A stretch of 51,172 bases of DNA, taken from contig JBIOYL010000188.1 in NCBI GenBank assembly GCA_044870185.1, forward strand, positions 1-51,172, given 5' to 3'. A program made the position numbers and the translations under genes. The notes below the pieces were generated by a model. The model saw only the letters and a list, made by a program, of their open reading frames with translations. It was not told the DNA's origin and did no database searches. Shown here piece by piece: positions 230 to 49,209 of the stretch. The DNA is from Actinomycetes bacterium. Its GTDB lineage: Bacteria > Actinomycetota > CALGFH01. Numbering within the stretch: position 1 is the first letter of the stretch; the number at the start of each line of letters is the position of its first letter.

Positions 230-739
230 ATGACCGCCTGTGCACAAGGGATCGTCATCAAGCCGCTGGACGGCCCGTACCGCCCGGGCCAGTCCGGCTG
301 GCACAAGCTGCGGGCCCGGACCACCACGGAGGCGATCGTCGCCGGCGTCACCGGCTCGGCGCGTGAGCCCCGCACGCTGCTGCTGGCCCGACTCGACCGC
401 ACCGGTCACTTGCGCTACGTCGGGCGGACCGCCCCGCTGGCGGCGCCATCCCGGCGCGAGATCGCGCTGCTATTGCAGCCGGCCACAGATCACCCGTGGC
501 CGGTGCCGCTGCCGGTGGCCTGGCAGGGCCGCCTCGGCAGACCGGAACCGCTGCCCTACGTGCCGCTGGTGCCGTCGCTGGTGGCCGAGTTCGGTGCCGA
601 TGTGGCCTTCGAGACTGGCCGGTTCCGGCATCCCGTGCGCTATCTGCGTCCGCGCCTGGACCTCGACCCGGCTGACATCCCGCCCTGGACTTACGCGCGA
701 CGGCCTGCAGGAAGCGGGACAGCCGCAGCCACCGAGTGA
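230..739 (+). pseudogene. ATP-dependent DNA ligase, C-terminal fragment only (motif V plus OB-fold region); adenylation domain missing
   Basis: Translation opens inside a ligase motif-V-like segment (GIVIKPLDGPYRPGQSGWHKLRAR) and continues through an OB-fold-like tail. An in-frame TAA at 209-211 removes everything upstream, and no KxDG motif is present. Confidence 0.6.
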
Positions 740-921
740 GCTGCGCTGCCGACCCATGCCGCCGGCGGGGTTGGTCGCCTCGGCGGAACACCACGGCCGG
801 ACACCTGGGCGGCAAGCCTGGCCAACACCCGTCCTCCACCGTCGGCCGTCCAGATAGGACCTTGGTCGTGGCGTGCGAAACCCCTTTCCCTGGCGGCAGT
901 GACGGTGGTCTACTGATTGCC

Positions 922-957
922 AAGGTGGTGCGCCCTCCCCCGTGGGCACACCACCTT
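922..957 (+). terminator. Stem-loop downstream of the ligase fragment
   Basis: aaggtggtgcgccc / gggcacaccacctt pair at 13 of 14 positions around an 8-nt loop. No clear U-tract. Confidence 0.35.
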
Positions 958-1051
958 CGATCGTCTCTTGCCGGGACGTGTCCGACGTTCGCGATGTGCT
1001 GTGGGCACACACCGCTCCGCTGCGCCGGAGCCACCGAACGGAGGTCATCAG

Positions 1052-1252
1052 ATGGCGCGATACGCCACCCCGGGCGAGCTGAAGGCCGGCGACTGGTTCG
1101 TCGATCCGCATCGCGAGGGCAGGCGGCCCGCCGTGGTCGTCAAGGTGCTCAAGTCCGACCAGGGCAAGGTGAATTTCGAGCTGAACGACGACACCAAGTG
1201 GGGTGCCTGGACGGCCAGCTACGAGGCCGACGAGCAGCTCGAACTGGCCTGA
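1052..1252 (+). CDS. Small hypothetical protein (66 aa)
   Basis: ATG preceded by GGAGG SD (1040-1044). Protein-like translation MARYATPGELKAGDWFVDPH...; the upstream part of the listed ORF 917..1252 is Arg/Pro junk. Confidence 0.6.
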   Translation: MARYATPGELKAGDWFVDPHREGRRPAVVVKVLKSDQGKVNFELNDDTKWGAWTASYEADEQLELA

Positions 1253-1266
1253 CCGCACTCCACGAT

Positions 1267-1299
1267 GTGCCCGGCCGCGCTTCCCCGACGGCCGGGCAC
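1267..1299 (+). terminator. Perfect 11-bp stem-loop after the 66-aa gene
   Basis: gtgcccggccg (1267-1277) pairs perfectly with cggccgggcac (1289-1299); it starts 15 nt after the stop codon. Confidence 0.45.
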
Positions 1300-1365
1300 C
1301 CCAGGTCAAACCAGCAAGCCGGGCGTCGCGCTGGCGCACGCACGTTCTGGAGAGGATCGGCCCCG

Positions 1366-1740
1366 ATGAACTTCCAGCCTCAGCTCGCCCAGCTGGTGAT
1401 GGCCGGGCAGAAGTCCGTGACGCGCCGGATCGCCAACGGCAACCCGCGTTCCCCGTGGAGCGCCGACGGTTGCAAGCTGAAGATCGGCGCCGACTACGCC
1501 GTGTGCCCCGGCCGCGGCAAGCCCGCTATCGGACGCGCCCGCGTCTTGAGCGTCGCGCTGGTCCGCCTGGGTCATCTGTCCACGGAGGAGGCCCGGCGGG
1601 AGGGCTTCGACAGCCCGGCCGCGTTCGAGGCGGCCTTCGCCCGCATCAACGGCCGCTACGACCCGGACGCGATGGTCTGGCGCGTCGAGGTCGAACGGGT
1701 CACCGTCACGCCCGGCCGCCGGTCTCACTCCGGCTCCTGA
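1366..1740 (+). CDS. ASCH-domain protein
   Basis: MNFQPQLAQLVMAGQKSVTRRI... matches the ASCH N-terminal pattern (G-x-K-x-x-T-R-R). SD GGAGAGGA lies upstream. It is the in-frame tail of listed ORF 736..1740. Confidence 0.7.
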   Translation: MNFQPQLAQLVMAGQKSVTRRIANGNPRSPWSADGCKLKIGADYAVCPGRGKPAIGRARVLSVALVRLGHLSTEEARREGFDSPAAFEAAFARINGRYDPDAMVWRVEVERVTVTPGRRSHSGS

Positions 1741-2906
1741 TTCCCCTCACCCATCAGGTGATCCATCAAGGTGAACCCGGGTGGAGTCTCCACGTCGATC
1801 AACTCGTGCATGAATTGCGGGACAATCACCTGCAGAAGCTGGTACTGCCCGTTGGGGATCGCCTCGCGCAGCACCCGTAACGCCCGGGCCGTGTGCAGCA
1901 GGCCGACCGCCGTGGACGCCCGCGAGGCCAGGGTGTCCCGGCGGGCACGCAGCTCCGTCCGGACGATCATCCGGTGCAGGCCGACGACACTGCCCAGAAA
2001 CCACTCCAGGCACCCCGGCCCCGGCTGGCCGGCGGCCAGCTCGGCCTCCACGTTCTCGACCAGCTGCAGGGCCCAGACCCGCTGGGCGGCGGCGGTCTGC
2101 CACGCCAGCCGCAGCTGTTCGGACGTGGCCTGCTCGACGACCAGCAGCAGATCCTTGCGCATGTCCCCGGCGGGCATCATGGTGAATCCGGCGGCATCAC
2201 CGATCAGCGTCAGGTCGGGGTTGTTCTCGTACTCGAGCATCGACGCGGCGGGCATCGCGGCCCCCGCTGGGCCCATCGCCCGCATCATCGCGGCCATGGC
2301 CGGACCGGTCAGCTCCGTGCCTCCACCGAGCACCGCGGCCACCGACAGCGCGTCCAGGTCACGAGCGTTCATCGGCTCCGGTTGCGCGGGGCCCTTGTCG
2401 TACTGGGCGATCGACTCGTGTGACCACGGCAGCCACGCGGCGAGCTGATCGTCGATGCGCCGCATCCGCCTGGGCACCAGCACCCCGCGCGGGTGGGCGT
2501 CGAGCTCGCGCGCCACGACCTCCCACGTCCAGTCGCCGCGGTCGCCACCTTCGACGGCTTGCACCTCTCGCTCTGCCTTGAGCACCACCCGGTGGATGCT
2601 GGCGGCCAGCGCCGCCCGCACGGCGGGTTCGGGCACGACCAGGCCGGCGTCATACGCCAGCAGCGCCAGGTCGTGCGGGCGCCGCCCCGCCCGCGCGTGA
2701 CGCCCGAGCAACACCACCAGGTCGCCGGCCCCATCGGCCGGAGCGGAGGTGCTGCCGCGTCCCCGGCCGAGCGCACGCTGCGTGTTGGGCGGGAGCAGTC
2801 CGTGCGCGCGCCAGCGCTCAAGCTGCGACGCGGTGACCTTTACCGCGTGGGCTTCGGCGTACGCGACCAACTGCCGGTCGGCGGCTGACGGCGTTCCACG
2901 GGACAC
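1725..2906 (-). CDS. Hypothetical protein (393 aa)
   Basis: Long ORF with balanced composition, GTG start. It lies downstream of and co-oriented with the exonuclease gene. Confidence 0.65.
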   Translation of the reverse strand: MSRGTPSAADRQLVAYAEAHAVKVTASQLERWRAHGLLPPNTQRALGRGRGSTSAPADGAGDLVVLLGRHARAGRRPHDLALLAYDAGLVVPEPAVRAALAASIHRVVLKAEREVQAVEGGDRGDWTWEVVARELDAHPRGVLVPRRMRRIDDQLAAWLPWSHESIAQYDKGPAQPEPMNARDLDALSVAAVLGGGTELTGPAMAAMMRAMGPAGAAMPAASMLEYENNPDLTLIGDAAGFTMMPAGDMRKDLLLVVEQATSEQLRLAWQTAAAQRVWALQLVENVEAELAAGQPGPGCLEWFLGSVVGLHRMIVRTELRARRDTLASRASTAVGLLHTARALRVLREAIPNGQYQLLQVIVPQFMHELIDVETPPGFTLMDHLMGEGNQEPE

Positions 2907-2987
2907 GTGCAGACCATACGTCCACCGCGGCTACCCGGGTCTACCGCCGCTGCGGCGCATCGGCTGCGGAGAGGCCGGACTAGGGGT

Positions 2988-3173
2988 TCACGCCTGACCG
3001 CCAACGTCCGGCGCGGACGGCAGTTCGGCCTGCAGGTACAGGGTGTACCCATCACCATCGCGGCGCGGGCGCGGCTGGCGGCTTTCGCCGACCACCGTCA
3101 GCACGGTAGCCACGCGATCTGCAGCGGCGTGGAGCTCGTCGAGGTCAGCCGCGACGAGCCGTACGCGGATCAT
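2988..3173 (-). CDS. Small hypothetical protein (61 aa), translationally coupled to the exonuclease gene
   Basis: Its ATG overlaps the exonuclease TGA (ATGA at 3170-3173). Translation: MIRVRLVAADLDELHAAADRVATVLTVVGE... Confidence 0.5.
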   Translation of the reverse strand: MIRVRLVAADLDELHAAADRVATVLTVVGESRQPRPRRDGDGYTLYLQAELPSAPDVGGQA

Positions 3174-4825
3174 CGGCGCAGCGCCTTGGGCTGGAACGCC
3201 GGAGCGGTCATTGCGGCGAGCAGTTCGGCGGCCACCTCGCAGTCTCCCCGCGCCCTGTGCCCCCCGCCCAGCGGCAGCCACCGGTGGCGCATCAGCCAGT
3301 CCGAGCGCCGGTTCATCAAACACGACCAGCGATGCTCGTCGGCAAGGTGGCGCGGGTCCAAGCCGTCGCGGCGGGCGTGCCGGGCCAGGGTGCCTTGGTC
3401 AAACTCGGCGTTGTACGCCAGTACCGTGCGGCCCTGGGTGACCTCCAGCAGCCGGGGCATCACCTGCGCCAGAGGCGGGGCGTCGACAAGTTCCTCATCG
3501 CTGATGCCGTGCACCCAGCGGGCCCCTGGCTGCACCGGGCAGCCCGGGTTCACCAGGGTGTCCAGCAGTACCTCGCCGGTGGCCGCGTCCAGGACGGCAA
3601 TCTCCACGACGTAGCCGACCAGATCGGTGGTCTCGGTGTCGAGGATGACGGCCGCGCCGGGTTCGCGCATCGCCCGGGCCCAGCGCAGCGCGGCGCCAGC
3701 CTCCGTGGCCACCGCGATCGACTCACGATGCTGGCGCAAGTACGGATGGGCGAGGATCGCCGCCTTGAACTCCTTGACGGTGGGGCCGCCGTCCACTCGC
3801 TCGAAGTCGACCTCCCAACTCCCGGCGTTGTTGTTCCACCAGGCCCACACTTCGCAGCGGTACCGGTCGCCCAACTCAGCGATGCCCCGCCGGATGACCG
3901 CCGCCCGGTCGATTGGCCGGCGGGCCAGGTGCCGCAGCGGCGACGGCTCGCCCGGCTTGACCGTCCGCACGGCTTCCCAGTCGATATCCGGGTGCTCGCG
4001 CAGCCCTTCCAAATCGCCGACCCGGTAGAGCGGCACGTCCACCCACCTGTACTTGGTGACCTGGGTGGCGGTATGGGTCTTCGGCGCAACCAGGTCCGCC
4101 GCCAGCAGCCACTTGAAATCACTCTCGCGGATCTCCAGGTGAACGGCGGCCTGGTGGGTCATCAGCAGCCGGTCTAGCCGCACCTGCTCGGCCAGCTCCT
4201 CGTCGCCGGCGAGTGCATCCAGGTCGGACTTGGCGTACCGGTCTAACCGCCCCATCGTCAGGCCGCGCTGCTTGGCGACCCGGCCGAACTCGTCGCGCCG
4301 CCAGCCGAGGTATCCAGGGGCGTCCCACTGGCTGACGCTGCTCGCGACCCACGCCTGGCGCTCGGCCACGATCGCACCCAGCGCGTCCACGTCGACCGCA
4401 TCCAACGCCCTGCAGTCCCACAGCGGCCATTCCTTGTACCAGCCAGCCACCGCGAGCGTTCCGGCGTCCGCCAGCGCCTCGACGTCGTGCTTCTGCACCT
4501 CCAGACCGGTCCGTTCGGCCAGCCGGGCCGCGGCCTTGTGTCCGCCGATCGGCGCGTCCACTCCCACGAAGGCCACGATCTCGTCGCGTCGCTGGGCCAC
4601 CTCGTTGGCTACCGCACGCGACCAGCGTCCCGTCGCAGTGTCGGGGGCCGGGATCAGCCCGGCGGCCCGGGCGGCGTCCCACTGCCACTCGGCCAGTCCG
4701 GTGTGCCGGAGCACCTGCACCGGGCCGAAATCGGTCAGCGGCGGCTTCGGCTTGGGCTCCGTGCGGGCCGCGGTCGGCACCACTGCGGCACCGGTTCCGG
4801 TCGTGCTCTCAGCCACGTTGCTCAC
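3170..4825 (-). CDS. DnaQ/epsilon-like DEDD 3'-5' exonuclease fused to a ~370-aa N-terminal region of unknown function
   Basis: C-terminus carries ILDTETTDL (Exo I), AYNAEFD (Exo II) and HRARGDCE (Exo III, DEDDh). GTG start at 4825 is preceded by GAGAGGAA. The listed 739-aa ORF is N-terminally over-extended. Confidence 0.85.
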   Translation of the reverse strand: MSNVAESTTGTGAAVVPTAARTEPKPKPPLTDFGPVQVLRHTGLAEWQWDAARAAGLIPAPDTATGRWSRAVANEVAQRRDEIVAFVGVDAPIGGHKAAARLAERTGLEVQKHDVEALADAGTLAVAGWYKEWPLWDCRALDAVDVDALGAIVAERQAWVASSVSQWDAPGYLGWRRDEFGRVAKQRGLTMGRLDRYAKSDLDALAGDEELAEQVRLDRLLMTHQAAVHLEIRESDFKWLLAADLVAPKTHTATQVTKYRWVDVPLYRVGDLEGLREHPDIDWEAVRTVKPGEPSPLRHLARRPIDRAAVIRRGIAELGDRYRCEVWAWWNNNAGSWEVDFERVDGGPTVKEFKAAILAHPYLRQHRESIAVATEAGAALRWARAMREPGAAVILDTETTDLVGYVVEIAVLDAATGEVLLDTLVNPGCPVQPGARWVHGISDEELVDAPPLAQVMPRLLEVTQGRTVLAYNAEFDQGTLARHARRDGLDPRHLADEHRWSCLMNRRSDWLMRHRWLPLGGGHRARGDCEVAAELLAAMTAPAFQPKALRR

Positions 4826-5045
4826 CTGCCGGGTTCCTCTCGTTCCGGTGACAGCGGCGGATCCAGGATGCCGCAGCCGTACGACGGTTCCTGGTAGCCC
4901 GTGCCGCCTTGCCTGTTCAGGCGACCAAGGGCTCATGCGGCGACGTGGACAGCGTTTAGAGCCCCGCGACCTTCGGAGAGCTGACCATGGTGCGGCTTGG
5001 TTGGCTTGACGCAATGCCCCAGGTGGGGGCGCTGGTACGGAGGCA

Positions 5046-5234
5046 GTGATGTCTCGTAAGGAAACTCCCGATGGGCCGCAGCCGCCGCTGCTTGATCCGC
5101 GCACGTGTCTGGTGGTGGCGATGGCGGCCGGCGCGGGCCTGGCCTCCGCCCACAGCGAGTCGTGGGCCACCGCGATCACCACCGGCCTGGCGGTGCTGGT
5201 GGCGCTGCAGGCAGTGATCGGGCGGTGGAGATGA
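5046..5234 (+). CDS. Small putative membrane protein (62 aa)
   Basis: SD ACGGAGG upstream. Two hydrophobic segments (CLVVAMAAGAGLA, TGLAVLVALQAVIG). Confidence 0.4.
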   Translation: MMSRKETPDGPQPPLLDPRTCLVVAMAAGAGLASAHSESWATAITTGLAVLVALQAVIGRWR

Positions 5235-7511: not shown

Positions 7512-7877
7512 CTAACTGGATGCAGGCTTGCCGGTGTCGAGCTGGGCGCGCAGATCGGCAAAGACGGTTCGTGCGCTCTCCACAGTGTCCTCGCCGATGT
7601 CGAACCGCAGCCGCTCCAGCGCCTCGTCGGCGGTGTACCCGGCGGCCGCGAGCCGATCGCGGTCGTCGATGATCACGGCGACGGCGAGGACTTCACCGCT
7701 CGACCAGGCGGGCCACGGCTGGCCAGGATCGAGCCGGCGCACGAGGCGCGCCTTGTTCAGCCAGTCGTCCAGCAGCCGCGGCCCGGTGCCTGCGGTCTGG
7801 TCCGCGATCCACTGCTGCAGACCGCCGCGTGGGATGACGATCGGCTCGTCGCGGCCGCCGAACTGCTGCTGGCCCAT
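7512..7877 (-). CDS. Conserved small protein, paralog family copy 1 (121 aa)
   Basis: Clear paralog of 17042..17371 (shared PIVIPRGGLQQW, PWPAWS-GEVLAVAVI, EALERLR). SD AGAAAGG. Confidence 0.7.
   Translation of the reverse strand: MGQQQFGGRDEPIVIPRGGLQQWIADQTAGTGPRLLDDWLNKARLVRRLDPGQPWPAWSSGEVLAVAVIIDDRDRLAAAGYTADEALERLRFDIGEDTVESARTVFADLRAQLDTGKPASS
7809..7844. repeat. 36-nt segment matching 17312-17347 at 35 of 36 positions
   Basis: ccactgctgcagaccgccgcgtgggatgacgatcgg versus ccactgctgcagtccgccgcgtgggatgacgatcgg. Confidence 0.8.
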
Positions 7878-9410: not shown

Positions 9411-10106
9411 TCAGTGGATGTCGCCTCGGTGGAACTGGTCCCAGGTCAGGGCACTCCAGAACGGCACGTTGCCGCCGTGGGTGAGCAGGTGGCCGACCGC
9501 GGTCAGGACCAGTCCACGGTGGTCGTTGCCCAGGTCGGCGGTGTCGTCGCCGATGTTGATCGGCATGGCCGAGGCGATCGAGGCGGCGATGCGCAGCATG
9601 GCCAGTTCCGAGGAGGAGCCGTCGAGGCTGGCGCCCTGGTCGTGGAGCTGGTCGCTCTGCTGCTCGTCCCAGTTGTCGAGCTCGTCGAGCAGTTGGGCGG
9701 GTGCGTGCAGGCTGCGCAGGGTGCGGATCGCGCGGGAGGCCAGTCCGAGGGCGGCGGCGAGCTTGCGCCAGTCGAGGTACGCCTCCACGCTCCCGTCGGG
9801 GTTCCAGCGGCAGGAGATGTACGGGCGCAGCGACTTCTCCTCCAGCCACCACTCGTGGACGATGAGCAGGTCGACCGCGGCCAGGCGCTGGCTGTCGGAG
9901 GCCCCGCGGCGCAGCGCGTCGGCGAGCTGGGCGGGGGTAAGCCGGGGTGCGAGCCGGCGGCTCTGCTGGTCCATGTGCTGGTACGCCAGGGTGGAGGCGT
10001 CGTCGAGGCGGTTGCCGCTGCCTCCCGATCCGCAGGCACAGGACCAGGTGTTCGCGGCGTCGTTGACGGTGTAGTAGTGGTTGGGGATGGCCTTCTTGGT
10101 GCTCAT
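9411..10106 (-). CDS. Hypothetical protein (231 aa), coupled to the GntR gene
   Basis: Its ATG overlaps the GntR stop (ATGA at 10103-10106). Translation: MSTKKAIPNHYYTVNDAANTWSCACGSGG... Confidence 0.6.
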   Translation of the reverse strand: MSTKKAIPNHYYTVNDAANTWSCACGSGGSGNRLDDASTLAYQHMDQQSRRLAPRLTPAQLADALRRGASDSQRLAAVDLLIVHEWWLEEKSLRPYISCRWNPDGSVEAYLDWRKLAAALGLASRAIRTLRSLHAPAQLLDELDNWDEQQSDQLHDQGASLDGSSSELAMLRIAASIASAMPINIGDDTADLGNDHRGLVLTAVGHLLTHGGNVPFWSALTWDQFHRGDIH

Positions 10107-10453
10107 GCCTGCTGCCCTCGTTCGTGGGGTCGCATGGACGGCTCGGTGCTCTCCAGCGCGGCCTCCAACTTGGCCAGCGCGGTTTTGACGTCGTTGACCA
10201 GCTCGCGGATGTCGTGGCGGGGCACGGCGATCACTTCGGCGCCGATGCCCTGGGTGATCCTGATCAGGCCCTCCTCGCGCAGGATGGCCTCTGCGCGGCG
10301 GATGGTGTTCAACGCCGCCTGGTAGTGCCTTTCGAGGTCGCTTATGCCGGGCAGCAGGTCGCCGATGCGGAACTCTTCGTCGCGGATCCGGCGGCGCAGA
10401 TCGGCGGCGATCCACGCGTGCTTCGGAACCCCGCTCGCTCCATCAGTTGTCAT
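10103..10453 (-). CDS. GntR-family (short, YtrA-like) winged-helix transcriptional regulator
   Basis: IAADLRRRIRDEEFRIGDLLPGISDLERHYQAALNTIRRAEAILREEGLIRITQGIGAEV is a typical GntR wHTH. Only a ~45-aa helical tail follows. Confidence 0.8.
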   Translation of the reverse strand: MTTDGASGVPKHAWIAADLRRRIRDEEFRIGDLLPGISDLERHYQAALNTIRRAEAILREEGLIRITQGIGAEVIAVPRHDIRELVNDVKTALAKLEAALESTEPSMRPHERGQQA

Positions 10454-10992: not shown

Positions 10993-11049
10993 GGAGGCTC
11001 CGTTTCGCCTGGGTCAGCGACTGCTTGGGCGGGCTGCGACGAGCCCTTG

Positions 11050-11077
11050 AAAATAGCCCTCCCCGAGGCAGAGGGCC
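11050..11077 (-). terminator. Intrinsic terminator closing the DprA-like/PRTase/DUF5131 cassette
   Basis: On the minus strand, a gccctc/gagggc stem is followed by TATTTT, 44 nt after the DUF5131 stop. Confidence 0.5.
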
Positions 11078-11120
11078 AGACTTCCTCCGCATGTCCGACA
11101 TGGACGCCGGATCCGATTGG

Positions 11121-11897
11121 TCAAGGGGCGGATCGAGCCAGCGCCAGCAGGTCGGGCTCCCCCATCGCCGGCATGGCGTCGTAGACGCGGCCGTCGAGAA
11201 CGCGGCCACCCGCCTTGGGCGTGTGCCCGCCCCACTGCTTGAAGAAGAACGGCACGCCCGCGCTTTCGCAGCGGTCGCGCAGCTCCCGCACCCACTGCGG
11301 GCGCACCGGCCGGTGGTTTCTGCCGCTCTCGCCACCGGCGATCAGCCAGGAGATCCCGGCCAGGTCCAGCTCGCCGAGCGATCCCAGCAGCGGCTCGGCG
11401 GAGATGAAGCGCACGGCCGCGGGCACCCGGCGCAGCTCGTCGACCCGCCGCGCCTGCTGTGGGTTCTCCACGCTGACCCCGAGCCACACGTTGGCCGGCC
11501 AGGGCAGGTCTGCCGCCATCCGCGCCGCCCGGCGTGGGCGTTTGGTCAGCAGCTGGTAGGTGTGGCGCGGGGTCGCCGCCATCACCTCGAACACTGAGTG
11601 GATGAACGCGGCGGAGACTTTGGCGTGGAACAGGTCGCTCATGCTGTTGACGAACACCAGCCGTGGCGCGGCCCAGCGGTGCGGCAACGCCAGCGCGGCC
11701 GGGTGTTCGGTGACCGCGAACCCGGGGCCGCTGGTGCGGGGGTCACCGTCGGCCTGGTACTTCGGGTTGCCCATGGCTTTGAGGCGTTTGGCCAGGGTCA
11801 GGGCGTAGCAGTTGTCGCAGCCGGGCGATACCCGGTCGCATCCGGTGACCGGGTTCCAGGTGGCCTGTGTCCATTCGATCGCGCTCTTGTCACCCAT
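11121..11897 (-). CDS. Phage Gp37/Gp68-family (DUF5131) protein with three-Cys motif
   Basis: N-terminus IEWTQATWNPVTGCDRVSPGCDNCYA is the family hallmark (C-x6-C-x2-C). The listed ORF 11121..12047 is trimmed to MGDKSAIEW. Confidence 0.85.
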   Translation of the reverse strand: MGDKSAIEWTQATWNPVTGCDRVSPGCDNCYALTLAKRLKAMGNPKYQADGDPRTSGPGFAVTEHPAALALPHRWAAPRLVFVNSMSDLFHAKVSAAFIHSVFEVMAATPRHTYQLLTKRPRRAARMAADLPWPANVWLGVSVENPQQARRVDELRRVPAAVRFISAEPLLGSLGELDLAGISWLIAGGESGRNHRPVRPQWVRELRDRCESAGVPFFFKQWGGHTPKAGGRVLDGRVYDAMPAMGEPDLLALARSAP

Positions 11898-11934
11898 GGG
11901 CGCACCGTAGGGGGTGGGTCCGTCACCGGCGCGG

Positions 11935-12654
11935 TTACGGCCGCCAGGGCACCCGGGCCAGTACCAGCCCGTCGACCTGCACTGCGCCGAGCAGGCGCAG
12001 CTTGTTCCCCACCGCGTCGAACTGGGAGCCGGTAGTGAACAGATCATCGGCCAGCAGGACGCGCGCCCCGGCCAGCGGGATCGTCGCCTGCACGGCGTCG
12101 GCGTGCGCGGCGGCCGCGGCCTGCTTGGCGGCGAAGTCCCGCCCGGCCGACTGCGGCGTGTCGATCGGTTTGACCAGGCCGTACGGGAAGATCGGCCAGC
12201 GGCGGTGGATGTCCTCGGTGGCGGCCGCCGCCATGACCCGCTCCATGTGCTGGTAGGGCTGCCGCCCGGTGAAGCTGGGGTTGGCCAGGATGTGGGTGTA
12301 CTGGCTGGCCTGCACCGCGTGCCGGTCCAGCCAGCCGAGGATCAGGCGGCCGAAGATGTTGCCCCATCCCCAAAAGCCCGGTGGGTACTTGAAGCGCCGG
12401 ATCGTGTCGTTGAGCGGGGCCGAGTCGACGGAGATCGCCGAGACGGTGCCGAAGCCTCGCGTGGGTTGCAGGCAGATCCGGTTGCGGCAACCGGCGGCGT
12501 CGACCTCCTGGGCGCACACCGGGCAGCGGATGCCGGTCAGCTGCGGGACGGTGCTCAACGCGCAGCCGATGCAGAACGCGGCCGCGCCGCTGACCTGGTA
12601 GGGGCAGGTCGCGCAGTTGGGGAAGCCCGGTGGGCGGCCGGCCGGGTAGGTCAC
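11935..12654 (-). CDS. ComF-type phosphoribosyltransferase with N-terminal double zinc ribbon
   Basis: CATCPY..CIGC..CPVC..C-x4-C, then the PRPP loop ARVLLADDLFTTGSQ. GTG start overlaps the DprA-like stop (GTGA). Confidence 0.85.
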   Translation of the reverse strand: MTYPAGRPPGFPNCATCPYQVSGAAAFCIGCALSTVPQLTGIRCPVCAQEVDAAGCRNRICLQPTRGFGTVSAISVDSAPLNDTIRRFKYPPGFWGWGNIFGRLILGWLDRHAVQASQYTHILANPSFTGRQPYQHMERVMAAAATEDIHRRWPIFPYGLVKPIDTPQSAGRDFAAKQAAAAAHADAVQATIPLAGARVLLADDLFTTGSQFDAVGNKLRLLGAVQVDGLVLARVPWRP

Positions 12655-13766
12655 AGCGGCGCCGCCGCGGCGCTGGCCATGTGGTGGCGCAGCGTGGCGG
12701 CCGCGGCGATGGCGTCGGCGGACGCGACGCGTTCGATCACGTCGGCCACGTCGGCGACCTCGACGACCGGCAGGGGCAGCCGTGGCGGCTCGGCGGTGCT
12801 GTCGTCGTCCTGGCCGGGTGTCGTGAACAGGTCGACGTCGGTCACCGGCTTGATCCGGGTCGCGCGCGCGTAGCTGCCGGTCAGCGGGGTCTGCGGATCG
12901 GTCCGGTACAGCTGCAGCGCTTCGAGGATCATCTTCTTGGCCCACGGTTGGGCGGTGGCCAGGGACTTGAGCAGGAAGACGGTCTTGGCGTGGGCGCGGG
13001 CGGCCTGGGCCTGCATCTTGGCGCCGGAGGTCGACGACGCCTCGATGACGACCGTGCCCTGGGTGAAGCCGGACATGGTGACGTTGCGGGCCGGGAAGCG
13101 CCACTTGTCCGGCGGATCGGTGGGCCAGAACTGGGAGACGACCGCGCCGCCGGTGGCCACGATCCGGTCGGCCAGTGCCGCGTTCTCCTTCGGGTAGACG
13201 GGGCTGGCGATGCCGGTGCCGGTGACGGCCACGGTGCGGTTGTCCAGCCCGACGGTGGCCGTGTGCGCCGCGGTGTCGATGCCCTTGGCGAGGCCGGAGA
13301 CGACCACGATGCCTTCACGGCTGAGGCCGGCGGCCATCCGGCGTGCCCGGGACAGCCCGTCGGCGCTGGCGTTGCGGGTGCCGACGACCGCGATCGAGCG
13401 GGCGTCGGTCAGGCTGAGGCTGCCCTTGTAGAACAGGAAGGGCGGCGCGTCGGGCACCAGGCGCAGGTTGGCCGGGTAGTCCTCGTCGACGACGGTCACC
13501 AGATGTGCCCCGGCCCGCTCGGCGATGTCGAGCTGCCGGAGCGTGAATTCCCGCGCGTCCTTGAGGGCGGTTGACGACGCTAGCGCCCACGCCATGATCT
13601 GGCGAGCCTTGTCCGCCTTCGCCGAGTGTTCGGTGACCTCGCCGGCGAACCAGCGGTCGAGCGCTTCGCTGCCCTGAGCGGTGCGGGCCAGTAGCTTCCA
13701 GTCGATGCGGCCGAGGGTCTCGTGCTGCAGGGCGCACAGCGTCAGCAGTCGTTCCTGATCACGCAT
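12651..13766 (-). CDS. DprA/Smf-like (SLOG/Rossmann) DNA-processing protein with atypical C-terminal tail
   Basis: IAVVGTRNAS..G...A..LA..L...GIVVVSGLAKGIDTAAH...VAVTGTGI...YP.EN is the DprA core. Strong SD GGAAGGAGGG. The last ~110 aa are acidic/Ala-rich rather than a wHTH. Confidence 0.9.
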   Translation of the reverse strand: MRDQERLLTLCALQHETLGRIDWKLLARTAQGSEALDRWFAGEVTEHSAKADKARQIMAWALASSTALKDAREFTLRQLDIAERAGAHLVTVVDEDYPANLRLVPDAPPFLFYKGSLSLTDARSIAVVGTRNASADGLSRARRMAAGLSREGIVVVSGLAKGIDTAAHTATVGLDNRTVAVTGTGIASPVYPKENAALADRIVATGGAVVSQFWPTDPPDKWRFPARNVTMSGFTQGTVVIEASSTSGAKMQAQAARAHAKTVFLLKSLATAQPWAKKMILEALQLYRTDPQTPLTGSYARATRIKPVTDVDLFTTPGQDDDSTAEPPRLPLPVVEVADVADVIERVASADAIAAAATLRHHMASAAAAPL

Positions 13767-13819
13767 GGTGCCCTCCTTCCCTCGGTGCCAGGCTAGGGCA
13801 GGCGTGTGTCATTTCGGCG

Positions 13820-13840
13820 GCACGGCGGCCGCGGCCGTGC
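13820..13840 (-). terminator. Short hairpin between the RHH/PIN pair and the DprA-like cassette
   Basis: gcacggc / gccgtgc 7-bp stem with a 7-nt loop, 23 nt after the PIN-like stop. Confidence 0.3.
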
Positions 13841-13862
13841 GGGGCGAGTGGGTACATGGCGG

Positions 13863-14261
13863 TCACTCGCTGAGATCGAGCACGTCGTCCTCGTCGAGTT
13901 CGTCGGCGTAGAGGTTCACGTCGTAGGTCGCCACGAGCGCACCCTGGGTGCGGGCCTCGGCCAGCACGTGGACGAATCCGGCCTCGACTCCGTGCGGCCG
14001 CGAGGCGATCGGCAGCGTGTCGTGCGAGAGCAGCGGCAGGATCACCGCGACGCCCTCGGCGCCGCCGAACAGCTCCACCAGGTGCTGCCGCTCGGTCGCG
14101 TTGAGGTCGGCGAACGCGTCCAGCACGGTAAGCGCGGGCACGCCGATCAGGCCGCCGTTTTCCATCACCGTGGTCATGAGTTCGGCGACCGGGGTCGCCC
14201 AGTCTTTGAGCACCGCGTACGAGGCCAGCGCGGTCTTGTCGAGAACGACGTGAATGCTCAC
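13863..14261 (-). CDS. PIN-like (VapC-family) toxin candidate, possibly degenerate
   Basis: N-terminal VVLDKTAL and C-terminal LVATYDV fit PIN acidic positions; the third acidic position is unclear. GTGA overlap with the upstream RHH gene. Confidence 0.45.
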   Translation of the reverse strand: MSIHVVLDKTALASYAVLKDWATPVAELMTTVMENGGLIGVPALTVLDAFADLNATERQHLVELFGGAEGVAVILPLLSHDTLPIASRPHGVEAGFVHVLAEARTQGALVATYDVNLYADELDEDDVLDLSE

Positions 14262-14500
14262 GCCGCCTGGGCCTCCGCGCCGCTGGTCCGGCGGCGGGTC
14301 TTCTCCGCCAGCCGCGCGCGCATGCGGGCCACGCCCTCGTCAGTGACGGTCACGCCGTGCGCGGCGAAGACCTCCTCGAGGCGGTCGGCTCGCTGCCGCC
14401 GCCGCAGTGCCTCGGTCACGTACTCGGACTTGTTGGGCAGCCCTTCGAGCTGGTCGGCGAGCTCCTCGGGGATGCTGACGCTGATCTTCCGCGATGCCAT
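14258..14500 (-). CDS. Ribbon-helix-helix (CopG-like) antitoxin/regulator
   Basis: MASRKISVSIPEELADQLEGLPNKSEYVTEALRRR is a classic RHH N-terminus. Confidence 0.75.
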   Translation of the reverse strand: MASRKISVSIPEELADQLEGLPNKSEYVTEALRRRQRADRLEEVFAAHGVTVTDEGVARMRARLAEKTRRRTSGAEAQAA

Positions 14501-16489: not shown

Positions 16490-17032
16490 TTACGCGGTGA
16501 CAGCGGCAGGGCGGCTGGCCAGCAGCTCGCCGGTCGACATGTGCACAGTGGTGAAACCTTCGGCGATCAGCAGGCCGGGGTTGGCCATGATCTCGCGCAC
16601 GGCGGTGTGCGTGCGCCGGACGATGTGGTCGGGCACGCGCCGACCGTAGCGGCGGCCGGGCGGCGGGCCGGGCCGGGCAGCGTTGCGAGCAAGGGCGACG
16701 TCCAGGTCCACGGCGAACAGCACCGCGCGGGCCGGCACGCCGACCGTAGCGGCCAGGGCGAGCAGGTGCGCGCGGTCGGTGACGTCGGCTGACGTCGCGT
16801 CGACCACGACGTCGCGGCCGTAGCGCAGCCGGGCCTCGATGAGCGCGAGCATCACGGGCACGGCGGCCGCGGTGGCGTCCTGGTCGTTGTCGTCGTCGCT
16901 GACCCAGCCACGCACGGTGTCCAGGCAGACGATCGCGGTGGTGGGCAGTCCGGATCGCGCACACCACCAGGTCTTCCCCGAGGCTGGGCAGCCGACCAAG
17001 GCGGTAAGCGTCGGCGCCGTAGCGGTGATCAT
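16490..17032 (-). CDS. P-loop kinase of the AAA_33 / polynucleotide-kinase / zeta-toxin-like class
   Basis: Walker A LVGCPASGKT, then CLDTVRG (Asp), VVVDATS, and RNAAR...R..VP, typical of small PNK-like kinases. Confidence 0.8.
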   Translation of the reverse strand: MITATAPTLTALVGCPASGKTWWCARSGLPTTAIVCLDTVRGWVSDDDNDQDATAAAVPVMLALIEARLRYGRDVVVDATSADVTDRAHLLALAATVGVPARAVLFAVDLDVALARNAARPGPPPGRRYGRRVPDHIVRRTHTAVREIMANPGLLIAEGFTTVHMSTGELLASRPAAVTA

Positions 17033-17041
17033 CGAGGCGGC

Positions 17042-17371
17042 CTACACCTGCTCGCGCAGATCGGTGAAGAACGCGCGCCCCTCGTCGCGGTCGGCGCCGA
17101 TTTCGTGGCGCAGCCGTTCGAGGGCCTCCTCTTCGGTGTAGCCGAGATCGGCGAGCATGTCGTCACGGTGCAGGATCACCGCTACGGCCAGGACTTCGCC
17201 GGTCGACCAGGCGGGCCAGGGCTCGCCGGGGGCGAGGTTGCCGGCGTGCATGGCCTTGGCCAGCCAGTCCTGCCGGAAATGCTCACGGTCGCCGCGCGCT
17301 TGCTCTGTCAGCCACTGCTGCAGTCCGCCGCGTGGGATGACGATCGGTTGGTTGTCGTGCTGGTCGGTCAT
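17042..17371 (-). CDS. Conserved small protein, paralog family copy 2 (109 aa)
   Basis: Paralog of 7512..7877, with a similar SD context (AGAAAGG). Its stop lies 9 nt before the kinase start. Confidence 0.7.
   Translation of the reverse strand: MTDQHDNQPIVIPRGGLQQWLTEQARGDREHFRQDWLAKAMHAGNLAPGEPWPAWSTGEVLAVAVILHRDDMLADLGYTEEEALERLRHEIGADRDEGRAFFTDLREQV
17312..17347. repeat. 36-nt segment matching 7809-7844 at 35 of 36 positions
   Basis: See the feature at 7809-7844. Confidence 0.8.
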
Positions 17372-21176: not shown

Positions 21177-21566
21177 ATGGACGACCGAGACCGGCTCGCC
21201 GAGTTCCTCACCCGCTACCACCCCACCGACGGCACACCGCTCAGCCCCGAGGAGGCACACGCCGCCGCCGACCGGATGCTGGTCGTCGCGCGCGCCAGCG
21301 ACGCGGAGCTGTACGCCAACGGCTACCGCTTCCTCACCGTCGCCCACGGTGACCTGGAGGATGCCGACGACGAGCGTCGCCTCCACCGGCTGTCCGCGCT
21401 GGCCGACGCCCCGCGGACGCTGGCCAGCATCTCGTTCCGGGGCACCAACGACACCAGCACCTGGATCGTGAACGGGGCTCAGGCCGCCGCCACCGTCGAC
21501 CAACTGGAAGCACTCGCCCACGAGCTCAACCCCGGCTGGTGGAAGATCCGAAGGACCGCCCGGTGA
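21177..21566 (+). CDS. Hypothetical protein (129 aa)
   Basis: GGAAGG SD; the stop overlaps the recombinase GTG. Confidence 0.6.
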   Translation: MDDRDRLAEFLTRYHPTDGTPLSPEEAHAAADRMLVVARASDAELYANGYRFLTVAHGDLEDADDERRLHRLSALADAPRTLASISFRGTNDTSTWIVNGAQAAATVDQLEALAHELNPGWWKIRRTAR

Positions 21567-22660
21567 CCACACTCGCCAAGCTCGAGCGCACGCTGTCGCC
21601 GGTGGAGGCGATCGTCCTTGCGGTCGACGCGCTGCCCGCGCTGCCCGCCAACGTGGACGGCGACCGCTACGCGGTCCGCCGGCTCACCGCCTCGTGGCTG
21701 GCCAAGCTCGGCTCCGACCACACCCGCCGCGCGTACTTCGGGGACCTGTCCGAGGCGCTGGCCTGGTGCGACCGGCAGCAGCTGGAGCCGCTGGCCGCCC
21801 GCCCGGCCGACTACGACATATATAAGGTCGGCCTGGTCGACCGGTACGCCGCAAGCACGGTCGGCCGCAAGCTGTCCGCGCTGAGCAGCTGGTACGCGTA
21901 TCTGCTGTCCAACCAGGCCGAAGGTGTGCGGGCCAACCCGCTTGCCGGAGTCGACCGGCCCGATGTGTCCCGCGACGACAGCCCGACCGTCGGTCTCGAC
22001 CCCTACGAGGTCGCCGCGGTCCTCACCTGGGCAGATCACGAAGTTGAGCTGCGGCAGCGCCGCCACGATGCGGATCCCACCCCCGGGCGGCATGCGCGCC
22101 TGCTGGCTGCGCTGCGGGACCGGGCGCTGGTCAGGGTGCTGGCCGGCATGGGTCTGCGGGTCGGGTCGGTGCTGGCGATGGACGTCTCGGCGCTGTCATA
22201 CCGGCAGGGCCTGCGTACCCTGCGCTACGTCGGCAAAGGAAAGCGGCGCCGGGAGCGTCCGCTGAACCCGACCGCCGCGCACGCCCTCGACGACTACCTG
22301 CGGGCCCGCGCGGCCGCCGCCGGCGTCGACGTCGACGAGCTGACCGGGCCGCTGTTCGCCACCACCGGCCGCGGTGGCGCTGTCGGGCGGGTCGACGAGC
22401 CGACCGTGTTCCGGCTGATCCGTCGCCTCGGGCGGTACGCGGGCCTTCCGCACGCCGCCCGCCTGTCGCCCCACTCGCTGCGCCACGCCTTCGCCACCAA
22501 CGCCTTGGACGACGGCGCCGAGCTCCGCGACGTCCAGGACGCGATGGACCACGCCGATCCGCGCACCACCCGCCGCTACGACCGCAACCGGCGAAGCCTG
22601 CTGCGCGACCCGGCCCTGCGCCTGGACGCCGTGTACGCCGTGCCGACAAGCGACGGTTGA
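21563..22660 (+). CDS. Tyrosine recombinase / phage-type integrase (XerC/D-like)
   Basis: C-terminal catalytic signature LSPHSLRHAFATNALDDGAELRDVQDAMDHADPRTTRRYDR (R...HxxR...Y), with an N-terminal SAM-like core-binding region. Confidence 0.9.
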   Translation: MTTLAKLERTLSPVEAIVLAVDALPALPANVDGDRYAVRRLTASWLAKLGSDHTRRAYFGDLSEALAWCDRQQLEPLAARPADYDIYKVGLVDRYAASTVGRKLSALSSWYAYLLSNQAEGVRANPLAGVDRPDVSRDDSPTVGLDPYEVAAVLTWADHEVELRQRRHDADPTPGRHARLLAALRDRALVRVLAGMGLRVGSVLAMDVSALSYRQGLRTLRYVGKGKRRRERPLNPTAAHALDDYLRARAAAAGVDVDELTGPLFATTGRGGAVGRVDEPTVFRLIRRLGRYAGLPHAARLSPHSLRHAFATNALDDGAELRDVQDAMDHADPRTTRRYDRNRRSLLRDPALRLDAVYAVPTSDG

Positions 22661-31240: not shown

Positions 31241-31406
31241 GTTGTGCCTCCCTTTGGGGATCGTTGTCCACGCAAGCAGATCGGCCGAGTAGGACTCACT
31301 GCTGCTTGCTGCTCCCCGGGCTGCGGCGGGTGGTGCTGGTACGGATGGGGGCTGGCTGTATTCAGCGTGTGGCCCACACCCCGGGGGAGGGTGCGGGCCA
31401 ACACGG

Positions 31407-32687
31407 TCAGTGGGCGGCGTCGACCAGTTCCTCCTGGGCGGGCAGGCCCAGCTGCTGCTTGACGTCGCGGATGCGCTGCTTGGCCCAGCCCTCAGAGGGC
31501 CGCCATTCCTGGTTGAGCGTGGCGGCGACGTGCTGGGCCACCCAGTCGCACACGACGGTGCTGGTGAGCCGGTCCTCGTTGCGCAGGGCGGTTTCGATCA
31601 TCTCGCGGGCGGGCCGGTCCATCGCCGCCGACAGGGTGCGCTGGTTCATGTTCAGTTCACCGGAGTCCACCATGGCGTCGCGGCGCTGCACCTGAGCCGG
31701 TGCCCCTGCGGCCACGACGGGAGCGGGGTCGTGTCGCACACCGTTGGCGTGGGTGAGCGGGGTGACCGGCACTGCGTTGAGCGGGGCGCCGTTGGCCGGG
31801 TGGTCGACGGCGACCGGGTGCCCGTTGCTCGCCGTGTGGGTGGACGCGAACGTGTCCGGCCGGATCAGGGCGCGGTTGGCTTCTGCCCGGGCCAGGCGCT
31901 CGACGATGAGCGCCTGCTGTTCCTCGACCACGCTGCTGGTGCGCTGGGACAGCTTGGCTGCACGGTGCTCCCTGAGCCACACGGTCCGGTGGTCCAGCGC
32001 GTCGCGCACGGTGGGCCGGGTGCCGGGAAGCGGCGGGTGGACGATCCAGGTGCGCCAGGCGAGGAAGGTGGACAGCGGGGCGAGGAACCACCGCAGCCCG
32101 AACCGGGGGTTCTTGGTCTTGAGCGCCAGTTCGTCGTCGTAGCCCGCCATGAACTGATCCAGCAGCTCATGGAACATCGCCATGCCAGCGAACGACAGGA
32201 ACGCCAGGTAGACACCGGCCCAGATCGAGTAGGTCTCCCGGCCGTGCACGAAGTTCAGCGTCGCGGACACCGTGGCTGCGGCGAACACGATCTTGTAGGC
32301 CCGGCCCGGGTGTCGGCCGCGCTTGACCGCGACGAACGCCCACGCTCCGAAGGAGACGCTGATGCCGTCGAGGCTCAGCGGCACCAGCATGTTGGTCCAG
32401 TGGTCCCACGCCATGACGTCGCGGGCGAACCCGGTCAGCCCGATGAACGACACGCCCATGACCGCCAGCCACACCAGCACCGAGGGGATGAGCGCGGCGA
32501 GGAACAGCGCGGTGTCCTTGGCCCGCTCCCGGCGGGTGGTCAGCTGCTCGGGATCGGCAGCACGGCGGCCGCGGCGCAGGCCGGCCGAGCGCGCCAGCGG
32601 GATGCCGATGAACAGGCTGATGGTCAGGACGCTGACGACAAGGACCAGCACCCATGTCGGAATCCAGGTTCCAAAAATCTGATCCAC
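31407..32687 (-). CDS. DUF2637-like polytopic membrane protein (Spd-like, typical of actinomycete integrative/conjugative elements)
   Basis: Four or five N-terminal TM segments including LVPLSLDGISVSFGAWAFVAV, then a long soluble tail. Confidence 0.6.
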   Translation of the reverse strand: MDQIFGTWIPTWVLVLVVSVLTISLFIGIPLARSAGLRRGRRAADPEQLTTRRERAKDTALFLAALIPSVLVWLAVMGVSFIGLTGFARDVMAWDHWTNMLVPLSLDGISVSFGAWAFVAVKRGRHPGRAYKIVFAAATVSATLNFVHGRETYSIWAGVYLAFLSFAGMAMFHELLDQFMAGYDDELALKTKNPRFGLRWFLAPLSTFLAWRTWIVHPPLPGTRPTVRDALDHRTVWLREHRAAKLSQRTSSVVEEQQALIVERLARAEANRALIRPDTFASTHTASNGHPVAVDHPANGAPLNAVPVTPLTHANGVRHDPAPVVAAGAPAQVQRRDAMVDSGELNMNQRTLSAAMDRPAREMIETALRNEDRLTSTVVCDWVAQHVAATLNQEWRPSEGWAKQRIRDVKQQLGLPAQEELVDAAH

Positions 32688-32692
32688 GATCG

Positions 32693-32992
32693 TCAGCCCT
32701 TCTTCGTGTCTCGTGTCGTGGCCTCGTCTGCTCGCTTTCGGTCTTTCCTGAGCTGCGCGTCGAGCTCATCGCGGTGCTTGACCGCGATGCGCCAGAAGGC
32801 AGCGACGATCTCGTGTTTCTTCACGTCCATCAGGCCCGCCGCGGGGTTCAGCGCGCGGGTGTGCAGCTCCACGTTGACCGCGGCGTCGAACTCGGCGGCG
32901 GCCTCGGTGCCGACGTAGAAGGTCTTGCGGCCGGCGCCGGTCTCGTCGGCAGCGCCGGGCTCGGCGGCGGAGCGGCTGGTCTTACGGGCCAC
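32693..32992 (-). CDS. Small basic protein (99 aa)
   Basis: GTG 8 nt after GAGGAG. Its stop lies 5 nt before the DUF2637 start. Confidence 0.5.
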   Translation of the reverse strand: MARKTSRSAAEPGAADETGAGRKTFYVGTEAAAEFDAAVNVELHTRALNPAAGLMDVKKHEIVAAFWRIAVKHRDELDAQLRKDRKRADEATTRDTKKG

Positions 32993-33050
32993 GGTCGGCA
33001 CTCCTCGCGTCAGGCCGCACGGCAGGCGGCAACCACCCGACGAGTGTATA

Positions 33051-33092
33051 ACATGTCCAACACGTGTGCAACGTTGGATGTGTTGGACATGT
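33051..33092. promoter_or_regulatory. 13-bp perfect inverted repeat with 16-bp spacer (operator candidate)
   Basis: acatgtccaacac ... gtgttggacatgt. The spacer contains the caacgttg palindrome. Lies in a low-GC gap 60-100 nt upstream of the 32992 start. Confidence 0.5.
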
Positions 33093-33239
33093 ATTACACG
33101 CCTGGGGCGTGAGCGTCGTGCGGGTGGGGCGAGGGTGGGCATGCGGCCTCCGTTCCGCATCGTGTCGTATCGGAGCCGTGAGACATGCCCGTTGGCTCCC
33201 GTTCGGGTTCCGGCGTGTCGGAGCGCCCCCTTGATCGGG

Positions 33240-36611: not shown

Positions 36612-37060
36612 CAGCCCACCACCAGCGCGGCGGTGGCGGTGCCGCTGACGGTGAAGCTGTTCACGCCGACGATCTGCAGGGTGAACGTCGGCTGGGCGAT
36701 GGTGATCGTGACGGTGATGTGCTGCAGGTCGGGGCTGATGGCGCAGGACGCTGGGGTGCACACGGGGAACCCGGCATCGATCAGGTAGGCGTTGACCGCG
36801 GCGATGGCGGCGTCGGGGTCGACCTGCTTGGTGCCGCCGGGCACGGCCTCGGTGAAGTCGATGGCCTGGCCTCCGGCGCGGGCCGCTTCGCGGGCGATGT
36901 TGGCGGCGCGTTCCCTGGCGCGGGTGTGTGCTGAGGAGTCGGCGCCGAACCCGACCAGGGCGATCAGCATCGGGTAGGTGATCGCGAAGAAGATCGTCAT
37001 GCTGCCCCGGTCCGTTCGGCGGCGGGGGCGGCGCAGCGCTCTACGCACAAGCTCAGTCAT
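36611..37060 (-). CDS. TadE/TadG-like pseudopilin
   Basis: RGSMTIFFAITYPMLIALVGFG N-terminal signature. ATGA-type coupling on both sides. Confidence 0.7.
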   Translation of the reverse strand: MTELVRRALRRPRRRTDRGSMTIFFAITYPMLIALVGFGADSSAHTRARERAANIAREAARAGGQAIDFTEAVPGGTKQVDPDAAIAAVNAYLIDAGFPVCTPASCAISPDLQHITVTITIAQPTFTLQIVGVNSFTVSGTATAALVVG

Positions 37061-38125: not shown

Positions 38126-38162
38126 GTTGCGTGGCCTCCTTGCGTCATTGGTGCGGGGTTTG

Positions 38163-42262: not shown

Positions 42263-42266
42263 GCCG

Positions 42267-49202: not shown

Positions 49203-49209
49203 GACGTGC

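Follow-up and report, generated by a model that had tools for sequence, protein, structure and literature searches.

A mobile, translationally coupled pair of a ShosA-like gene and a ComF-type phosphoribosyltransferase gene in Actinomycetota, and a DUF5131 gene beside it

We analysed a stretch of 51,172 nucleotides of actinobacterial DNA (contig JBIOYL010000188.1, hereafter the window) in which three consecutive genes encode a DprA-like protein (gene A), a ComF-type phosphoribosyltransferase (PRTase; gene B) and a DUF5131 protein (gene C). The results show that A and B form a self-contained, horizontally mobile, translationally coupled two-gene module that is found across Actinomycetota and is not a housekeeping competence pair. 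The module consists of a ShosA-like protein with a PRTase of ComFC architecture in place of ShosT, and is a variant within the ShosTA/PsyrTA class. We hold with high confidence that DUF5131 is not a conserved part of this A-B system. About even credence is given to the reading that A-B is a ShosTA-class type IV toxin-antitoxin (TA) or abortive-infection pair, in which B would be a toxin dependent on phosphoribosyl pyrophosphate (PRPP) and A a neutraliser dependent on single-stranded DNA (ssDNA) and RecA, with gene C an unrelated solo gene of the radical S-adenosylmethionine (SAM) type. No description of the A-B module was found in the searchable literature, although NCBI labels the genes as DprA and ComF family.

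Layout of the locus

The locus has the following features, listed in the direction of transcription.

13820-13840, minus strand: 7-bp hairpin without a U tract, in the 96-nt spacer between the upstream 132-aa open reading frame (ORF) and gene A
13771-13780, minus strand: Shine-Dalgarno (SD)-like sequence GGAAGGAGGG, ending 4 nt before the gene A ATG at 13766 (direct reading)
12651-13766, minus strand: gene A, DprA-like/ShosA-like protein of 371 aa (PF02481, PADLOC ShosA)
11935-12654, minus strand: gene B, ComF-type PRTase of 239 aa with a GTG start (direct reading, fold, PADLOC ShosT)
11898-11934, minus strand: B-C intergenic spacer of 37 nt, without a clear SD and without a significant hairpin (z = -0.83)
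11121-11897, minus strand: gene C, solo DUF5131 protein (phage Gp37/Gp68 family) of 258 aa, ATG at 11897 (PF07505)
11048-11078, minus strand: 9-bp GC-rich hairpin (11054-11078) with UAUUUUC behind it, which may act as a terminator downstream of gene C

An earlier interpretation made from the letters without database searches (the sequence-only reading) had placed the three genes at these positions, with a strong SD before the gene A start, a GTGA overlap between the first two genes and a 37-nt gap before the third. Each of these was recovered when the sequence was read directly: GGAAGGAGGG lies at 13780-13771, the gene A stop and the gene B start share GTGA at 12654-12651, and the gap runs from 11934 to 11898. 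The same reading had described the unit as insulated by hairpins. Both hairpins are present, and an insulating role finds no statistical backing: the 61-nt context of the hairpin after gene C was no stabler than dinucleotide shuffles (z = 0.05), the hairpin at 13820-13840 folded no better than its shuffles (z = +1.66), and a consensus terminator scan called no terminator. The G+C content and the G+C content at third codon positions (GC3) are alike across the three genes, and composition thus fails to set C apart from A and B. Gene C lacks an SD and translational coupling, in contrast to A and B.

Gene A is a ShosA-like protein with a DprA core

Gene A matches the Pfam DprA family PF02481 (1.1e-58, 198 bits) and the PADLOC ShosA model PDLC03961 (1.1e-66, 223 bits, profile positions 43-277 of 303), and also the PADLOC models PDLC02997 (1e-23) and PsyrA (2.3e-30). 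Against the dprA equivalog model TIGR00732 it scores 178.2 bits, under the cut-off of 191.15. The PDB entries that it matches by sequence include S. pneumoniae DprA (3uqz, 1.4e-33) and E. coli ShosA (9vzo, 5.3e-21). At its N-terminus the protein has a helical region, followed by the DprA Rossmann core at residues 83-274, a linker, a terminal strand and helix, and a short tail; the Rossmann/SLOG core is kept, as the sequence-only reading had it. ShosA and DprA use arginines in GTR and FPxRN motifs to bind ssDNA (PMC12961424), and gene A keeps GTR131N and FPAR227N, two of the three such arginines defined for ShosA.

The C-terminus had been described as an acidic and Ala-rich tail of about 110 aa that replaces a winged helix-turn-helix (wHTH) domain. 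There is indeed no wHTH in gene A. The tail is not uniform and falls into three parts, namely a linker insertion of about 50 aa that is confined to the clade formed by the closest relatives (Actinoplanes and Krasilnikovia, with metagenome contigs related to them), the conserved strand and helix that close the DprA fold (VVEVxDVxDV..R), and about 20 terminal residues. In E. coli ShosA, too, the C-terminus holds an extra helix and a disordered tail, the latter a cause of the protein's lability (PMC11961720, PMC12961424).

Gene B is a PRTase of ComF architecture

Gene B carries eight cysteines in its N-terminal approximately 60 residues, arranged as two CxxC...CxxC ribbons (C14/17/28/31 and C44/47/56/61), and its PRPP loop reads VLLADDLFTTG. 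Residues D203, D204 and T207 are invariant among 18 family sequences, and mutation of the equivalent D331/D332 of ShosT abolishes toxicity (PMC11961720, PMC12961424). No Pfam match was found for gene B. Its alignment to the GntX/ComF model NF008616 of NCBIfam is weak and full-length (1.3e-5; 24.8 against a cut-off of 304), and it scores 21.4 against the comF equivalog TIGR00201, for which the cut-off is 233.55. All of the 18 family members tested match PADLOC ShosT (best 1.2e-10), and 17 of the 18 match PADLOC PsyrT (best 1.5e-6).

An AlphaFold2 model of gene B (predicted local distance difference test score, pLDDT, 90) was compared with known structures by Foldseek. The top match was H. pylori ComFC (7p0h, 3.6e-5, query-normalised TM-score (TMq) 0.50), followed by ShosT (8zvd/8zvc/8zvb, about 4e-4, TMq 0.47-0.50), and housekeeping PRTases reached a TMq of about 0.3. 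The predicted fold of gene B is thus closest to ComFC and ShosT. The ComFC architecture that had been proposed from the double zinc ribbon and the VLLADDLFTTG loop is borne out by direct reading of these elements and by this top match.

A and B travel together, and DUF5131 does not accompany them

The sequence-only reading had proposed DUF5131 as a third component of the system, and the check set for it in advance was whether the three families stay together in other genomes. B loci were sought with one genome per species among representatives of 185,579 species, which gave 97 matches; 80 of these loci were taken with 10-kb flanks, and the closest relatives (60-74% identity) contributed five metagenome contigs more, for a total of 85 B loci. 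From the other side, 88 DUF5131 loci came from viral contigs (80) and from annotated plasmids or phages (8). Synteny was called by tblastn within 6-10 kb, with a threshold of E <= 1e-6 for DUF5131.

B belongs to a small family of 43 protein clusters, every one of them actinobacterial. An A homologue lies directly upstream of B in 82 of the 85 loci, and the 4-nt overlap of the A stop and the B start occurs in 51 of 79 loci; of the 28 loci without this overlap, 25 have at most 13 nt between the two genes. DUF5131 was found within 10 kb of B in none of the 85 loci, the closest relatives (60-74% identity) included, and in the nearest of these (74% identity) it is absent from the kilobase that follows B. 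Conversely, neither A nor B was found at any of the 88 DUF5131 loci. The three families thus failed to recur together from either side, which shows DUF5131 to be a neighbour and not a component, and the three-gene cassette as a recurrent system is refuted. These counts in both directions, like the gene anatomy and the family assignments above, are direct observations.

The DUF5131 assignment itself is sound: gene C matches PF07505 over its full length (5.2e-100) and contains the WNPVTGC-x6-C-x2-CYA motif that had been read from the sequence, with the cysteines at C20, C27 and C30. DUF5131 has been classed as a subgroup of the radical-SAM superfamily (PMC9477430). Its usual partner is TcmP. In the six closest annotated homologues examined (67-77% identity), which come from plasmids of Nocardia, Mycolicibacterium, Streptomyces and Micromonospora and from the Gordonia phage Easley, TcmP or a TcmP-like 'methyltransferase' adjoins DUF5131 in every case. 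A detectable TcmP lies beside DUF5131 in 19 of the 88 DUF5131 loci, a frequency that is an underestimate because detection relied on three divergent queries. The more distant mycobacteriophage copies of DUF5131 are solo, and solo copies are common in actinophages and viral contigs. Gene C resembles the members of the DUF5131-TcmP pair (TIGR04474 partner; PDC-M30/PDC-M41) in being full-length, in its three cysteines and in its 67-77% identity to TcmP-paired copies; it differs from them in being solo in the 51-kb window, like many mycobacteriophage copies. Searches of the literature on DUF5131/TcmP function and on the combination of SLOG, PRTase and DprA found no description of the arrangement.

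Could A, B and C nevertheless act as one nucleotide-centric conflict system, with the three-Cys protein as a new Fe-S partner and a functional link specific to this lineage? The shared strand, the 37-nt gap, the lack of a terminator-like site between B and C and the similar GC3 of the three genes speak for such a system, as do the absence of the normal partner TcmP and the matches of gene C to the candidate-defence models PDC-M41B (2.1e-102) and PDC-M30B (3.5e-97). However, the synteny counts are zero in both directions, DUF5131 often stands alone in actinophages and viral contigs, and gene C has neither an SD nor translational coupling. We therefore consider this possibility very improbable, and a new three-component system with an Fe-S partner does not hold as a finding. 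Gene C may still be co-transcribed with A and B in the window.

A possible source of gene C is suggested by the Micromonospora sp. NBC_00821 plasmid NZ_CP108881, which shares with the window a GntR-like wHTH protein (55%), DUF5131 (69%) and an integrase (41%), and on which TcmP follows DUF5131. This gene sharing suggests that the DUF5131 gene of the window derived from such an element and then lost TcmP. The window was searched by tblastn with three TcmP queries for a remnant that a local loss could have left beside gene C, and neither a TcmP gene nor a remnant was found in the 51 kb (nothing better than E = 0.1).

The A-B pair is mobile and accessory

B is carried by 26 plasmids of Streptomyces, Embleya or Kitasatospora, and Streptomyces sp. 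NPDC048664 has two copies of the pair. Recurrent neighbours were clustered from non-overlapping gene calls, since clustering of raw ORFs was confounded by antisense ORFs in the high-GC DNA. The flanks of A-B differ at nearly every locus, and except for a ShosT gene in Streptomycetaceae no flank is common to more than 12 loci. Integrases, transposases, a restriction endonuclease or SbcC-like genes lie near A-B in several loci, and some pairs sit near chromosome ends. The plasmids, the two copies in one genome, the variable flanks and the nearby integrases point to a mobile module rather than a housekeeping pair, in agreement with the sequence-only reading, which had placed the pair outside housekeeping.

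The opposite case, that A and B are the organism's housekeeping dprA/comFC competence genes, draws on the NCBI labels of the homologues, 'DNA-processing protein DprA' and 'ComF family protein'. It is contradicted by scores that fall short of the equivalog thresholds (dprA, 178 where 191 is required; comF, 21 where 234 is required), by the mere 97 matches across the species representatives, by the plasmids, the duplicate copies and the positions near chromosome ends and integrases, and by the lack of conserved flanks. We regard it as extremely unlikely.

On the Embleya plasmid NZ_CP108778 (locus L093), a gene for an A24 prepilin peptidase and one for a CoiA-nuclease-domain protein (652-3017) lie upstream of the ShosT, DprA-like and ComF-like genes, an arrangement that was seen once.

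ShosT genes, second B copies and B without A

The loci below differ from the simple A-B arrangement; positions are those of each locus.

L094, 1727-3352, plus strand: ShosT upstream of A
L093, 3500-4747, minus strand: ShosT upstream of A
29 further Streptomycetaceae loci (L003-L046): ShosT upstream of A
L082, 8917-9615: second B paralogue (50% identical to the window B) in tandem after the first
L086, 8298-9095: second B paralogue (50% identical to the window B) after the first
L072, 8406-9896: B without A, after an amidohydrolase of about 500 aa
L074, 8156-9703: B without A, after an amidohydrolase of about 500 aa
L078, 8291-9766: B without A, after an amidohydrolase of about 500 aa

A ShosT of 415-560 aa lies immediately upstream of A in 27 loci, with degraded copies in 4 more, all in Streptomycetaceae, which gives the gene order ShosT, ShosA-like, ComF-like. 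This upstream protein matches PADLOC ShosT PDLC03962 (1.6e-30), has the PRPP loop VIVFDDFTTEG and is collinear with the 427-position E. coli-type model (1.3e-14). The window does not have it. In L086, one reverse-strand gene separates the two B paralogues. With the DprA-like gene constant and the PRTases beside it duplicated or swapped, the pattern resembles effector diversification; a separate ShosT and a stand-alone B also agree with B being a ComFC-like protein that is not toxic and assists the DprA-like one. The three loci with B and no A are from Streptosporangiaceae metagenome-assembled genomes, and L072 and L074 share downstream genes and thus a conserved chromosomal setting; these loci may represent the housekeeping origin from which the B family arose.

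Comparison with ShosTA, PsyrTA and DprA-ComFC

The nearest known system is ShosTA (E. coli APEC O1, KTE181; PDB 8ZVA-8ZVD, 9VZO), which likewise consists of two genes for a DprA-like protein and a PRTase with a DD-containing PRPP loop, essential in ShosTA, and in which adjacent, co-oriented genes are conserved as a pair with an accessory, mobile distribution. Gene A shares with ShosA a helical N-terminal region, a Rossmann core of the DprA type and additional residues that extend past the fold at the C-terminus. Gene B departs further from ShosT. It has 239 aa against 424 aa, and in place of the N-terminal pyrophosphatase-like domain (ShosT residues 1-164, described in PMC11961720) it has two 4-Cys zinc ribbons; the relationship is remote, with an hhalign probability of 88% across 105 columns and a PDB profile E of 0.009. 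The A-B order, with A first and a 4-nt overlap, is a further difference.

PsyrTA (RqlHI) also combines a DprA-like antitoxin and a PRTase-domain toxin (bioRxiv 10.1101/2022.05.11.491447), and gene A matches PsyrA, as 17 of 18 B members match PsyrT. These matches are weaker than those to the ShosA and ShosT models, and the PsyrA model is longer (398 positions). As for the DprA-ComFC partnership of natural transformation (H. pylori ComFC, 7P0H), B resembles ComFC in joining a zinc finger to a PRTase (PRT) domain with a DDxxTTG loop, and in transformation ComFC is an ssDNA-binding protein that contacts DprA (PMC9005727). ShosT, by contrast, does not bind ShosA. B differs from ComFC in having two zinc ribbons instead of one, and the A-B pair differs from DprA-ComFC in scoring under the equivalog thresholds, in being borne on plasmids or islands with a patchy distribution, and in not being linked to comEC or comEA.

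A possible TA or abortive-infection role

The sequence-only reading had pointed to the ShosTA domain pair and argued for a conflict role. The part that concerns the A-B pair is supported by the ShosA match (1.1e-66) and by the ShosT matches of all 18 B members tested; the part that added DUF5131 is not. By homology with E. coli ShosTA, the toxicity of B, its neutralisation by A and a defence role of the pair would be expected. B would use PRPP through its invariant DD loop and so disturb nucleotide or DNA metabolism, and A would bind ssDNA, recruit RecA and counter the damage without contacting the toxin, as in a type IV TA system. Phage infection could remove or titrate A, for example by host shut-off or by phage ssDNA or ssDNA-binding protein (SSB), and on loss of A the cell would abort the infection. 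Gene C is a solo radical-SAM-like DUF5131 gene, of a family normally paired with TcmP on actinobacterial plasmids and phages, and on this reading the two modules, A-B and C, are adjacent by chance in a variable part of an integrative or plasmid-like element.

Several observations weigh against this reading. By sequence, gene A resembles the ShosA of E. coli less than it does the bona fide DprA of S. pneumoniae. The match of gene B to PADLOC ShosT is just 5.3e-4 and covers only the PRPP loop, and the hhalign comparison of B with Streptomyces ShosT gives a probability of 88% (E = 3e-6) over only 105 columns, which means that B is not a ShosT orthologue. In the 31 Streptomycetaceae loci a ShosT is already present upstream, and B could there be a helper and not the toxin; an obligate toxin would hardly be expected without A, as B is found in the three Streptosporangiaceae loci. 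When 119 genes adjoining A-B were scanned with PADLOC, the matches were for the most part to redundant methyltransferase models, contributed by 2 members, and to mad2, contributed by 3, with no clear enrichment of defence genes. Finally, the B-C gap of only 37 nt without a terminator makes co-transcription, and hence some functional link of gene C, conceivable in the window.

Alternatively, A-B may be a non-toxic pair on mobile elements, handling ssDNA in the manner of DprA and ComFC or serving as a co-antitoxin. B would then bind ssDNA or nucleotides and pass DNA to A, A would load RecA, and the pair would help incoming DNA to recombine or become established. In loci with a true ShosT, A and B together would form the module that neutralises it, and the window would hold a helper pair without a toxin. 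H. pylori ComFC, the top fold match of B, is itself a 4-Cys zinc finger joined to a PRT domain that binds ssDNA and interacts with DprA (PMC9005727), and to this may be added the full-length alignment of B with GntX/ComF, the closeness of A to DprA (1.4e-33) over ShosA (5.3e-21), the separate toxin in the 31 ShosT-A-B loci, the three B homologues that have no A, of which two lie in a conserved chromosomal setting, and the CoiA and prepilin peptidase genes beside the pair on the Embleya plasmid together with the Tad-like pilus genes of the window. On the other hand, both A and B fall under the dprA and comF equivalog cut-offs, A scores higher on the ShosA model (223 bits) than on the Pfam and TIGR DprA models (198 and 178 bits), and the CoiA/peptidase association is limited to one locus, with no flank besides ShosT common to more than 12 loci. 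The antitoxin-first 4-nt coupling, the second B copies in L082 and L086 and the patchy, plasmid-rich spread are moreover typical of TA and defence modules. We consider a helper pair possible, though on the unlikely side.

The gene order ShosT, ShosA-like, ComF-like in Streptomyces is the most interesting residue of this analysis and suggests a link of competence proteins to the PRTase/DprA defence systems. We tentatively propose, as a possibility held well short of conviction, that the zinc-ribbon ComF PRTase is an unrecognised conserved component of ShosTA-type systems in Actinomycetota, serving as the sole PRTase partner in most lineages and as part of a ShosT-ShosA-ComF-like operon in Streptomycetaceae. 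If this were true, it would form an evolutionary and mechanistic bridge from the DprA-ComFC hand-off of ssDNA to PRTase/DprA abortive infection, and would give a handle on the ligand or acceptor of ComFC and ShosT. The acceptor substrate of ShosT is not known (PMC12961424), nor is the role of the ComFC PRT domain (PMC9005727). Because the B family lies structurally between ComFC and ShosT and travels with a DprA-like gene, it is a useful comparative handle. The locus also calls for caution in the annotation of defence islands, where tools of the PADLOC type would show a ShosA, a borderline ShosT at best and an orphan 'B' gene of PDC-M30/M41.

Context of the window

The window has a G+C content of 70.8%, its neighbourhood consists mostly of ORFans, and it has the appearance of an element that is integrative or plasmid-like. 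When the proteins of the window were looked up by exact match, a 2.8-kb Logan contig was the only identical sequence returned, and the DUF5131 protein was not on record. The other recognisable features are as follows.

3170-5182, minus strand: 670-aa protein with a C-terminal RNase_T/DEDDh exonuclease domain
10103-10453: GntR regulator (GntR-like wHTH)
13863-14261 and 14258-14494, minus strand: TA-shaped pair of 132 aa and 78 aa with a 4-nt overlap, without profile support
16490-17032: AAA_33 kinase-like protein
21539-22660: tyrosine integrase
31400-44400: Tad/Flp-like pilus cluster with an A24 prepilin peptidase and small TadE-like proteins
39928-41454: T2SSE ATPase of the Tad/Flp-like cluster
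45876-49664: DnaE2-type pol III alpha gene

The pair upstream of gene A had been taken for a ribbon-helix-helix (RHH)/PIN pair, for which Pfam, NCBIfam, PADLOC, PHROG and PDB sequence searches gave no support. The further PADLOC matches in the window are a DEDDh exonuclease, PDC-S48, PDC-S07 and an HTH only, and the scan found no PDC-M30 or PDC-M41 partner there. Beyond A and B, no window gene has homologues beside A-B in more than 4 of the 85 loci. Homologues of the 670-aa RNase_T protein (46-50% identical) lie within about 3 kb of A-B in L053 (Krasilnikovia) and in L086, and a third locus has a short fragment match; two of the three loci are from named Micromonosporaceae or closest relatives. 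The link of this protein to A-B may be lineage-specific. The ORFans at 7512-7877 and 17042-17371, both on the minus strand, are 58% identical paralogues with the common motif PIVIPRGGLQQW, and each lies within a run of unannotated minus-strand genes.

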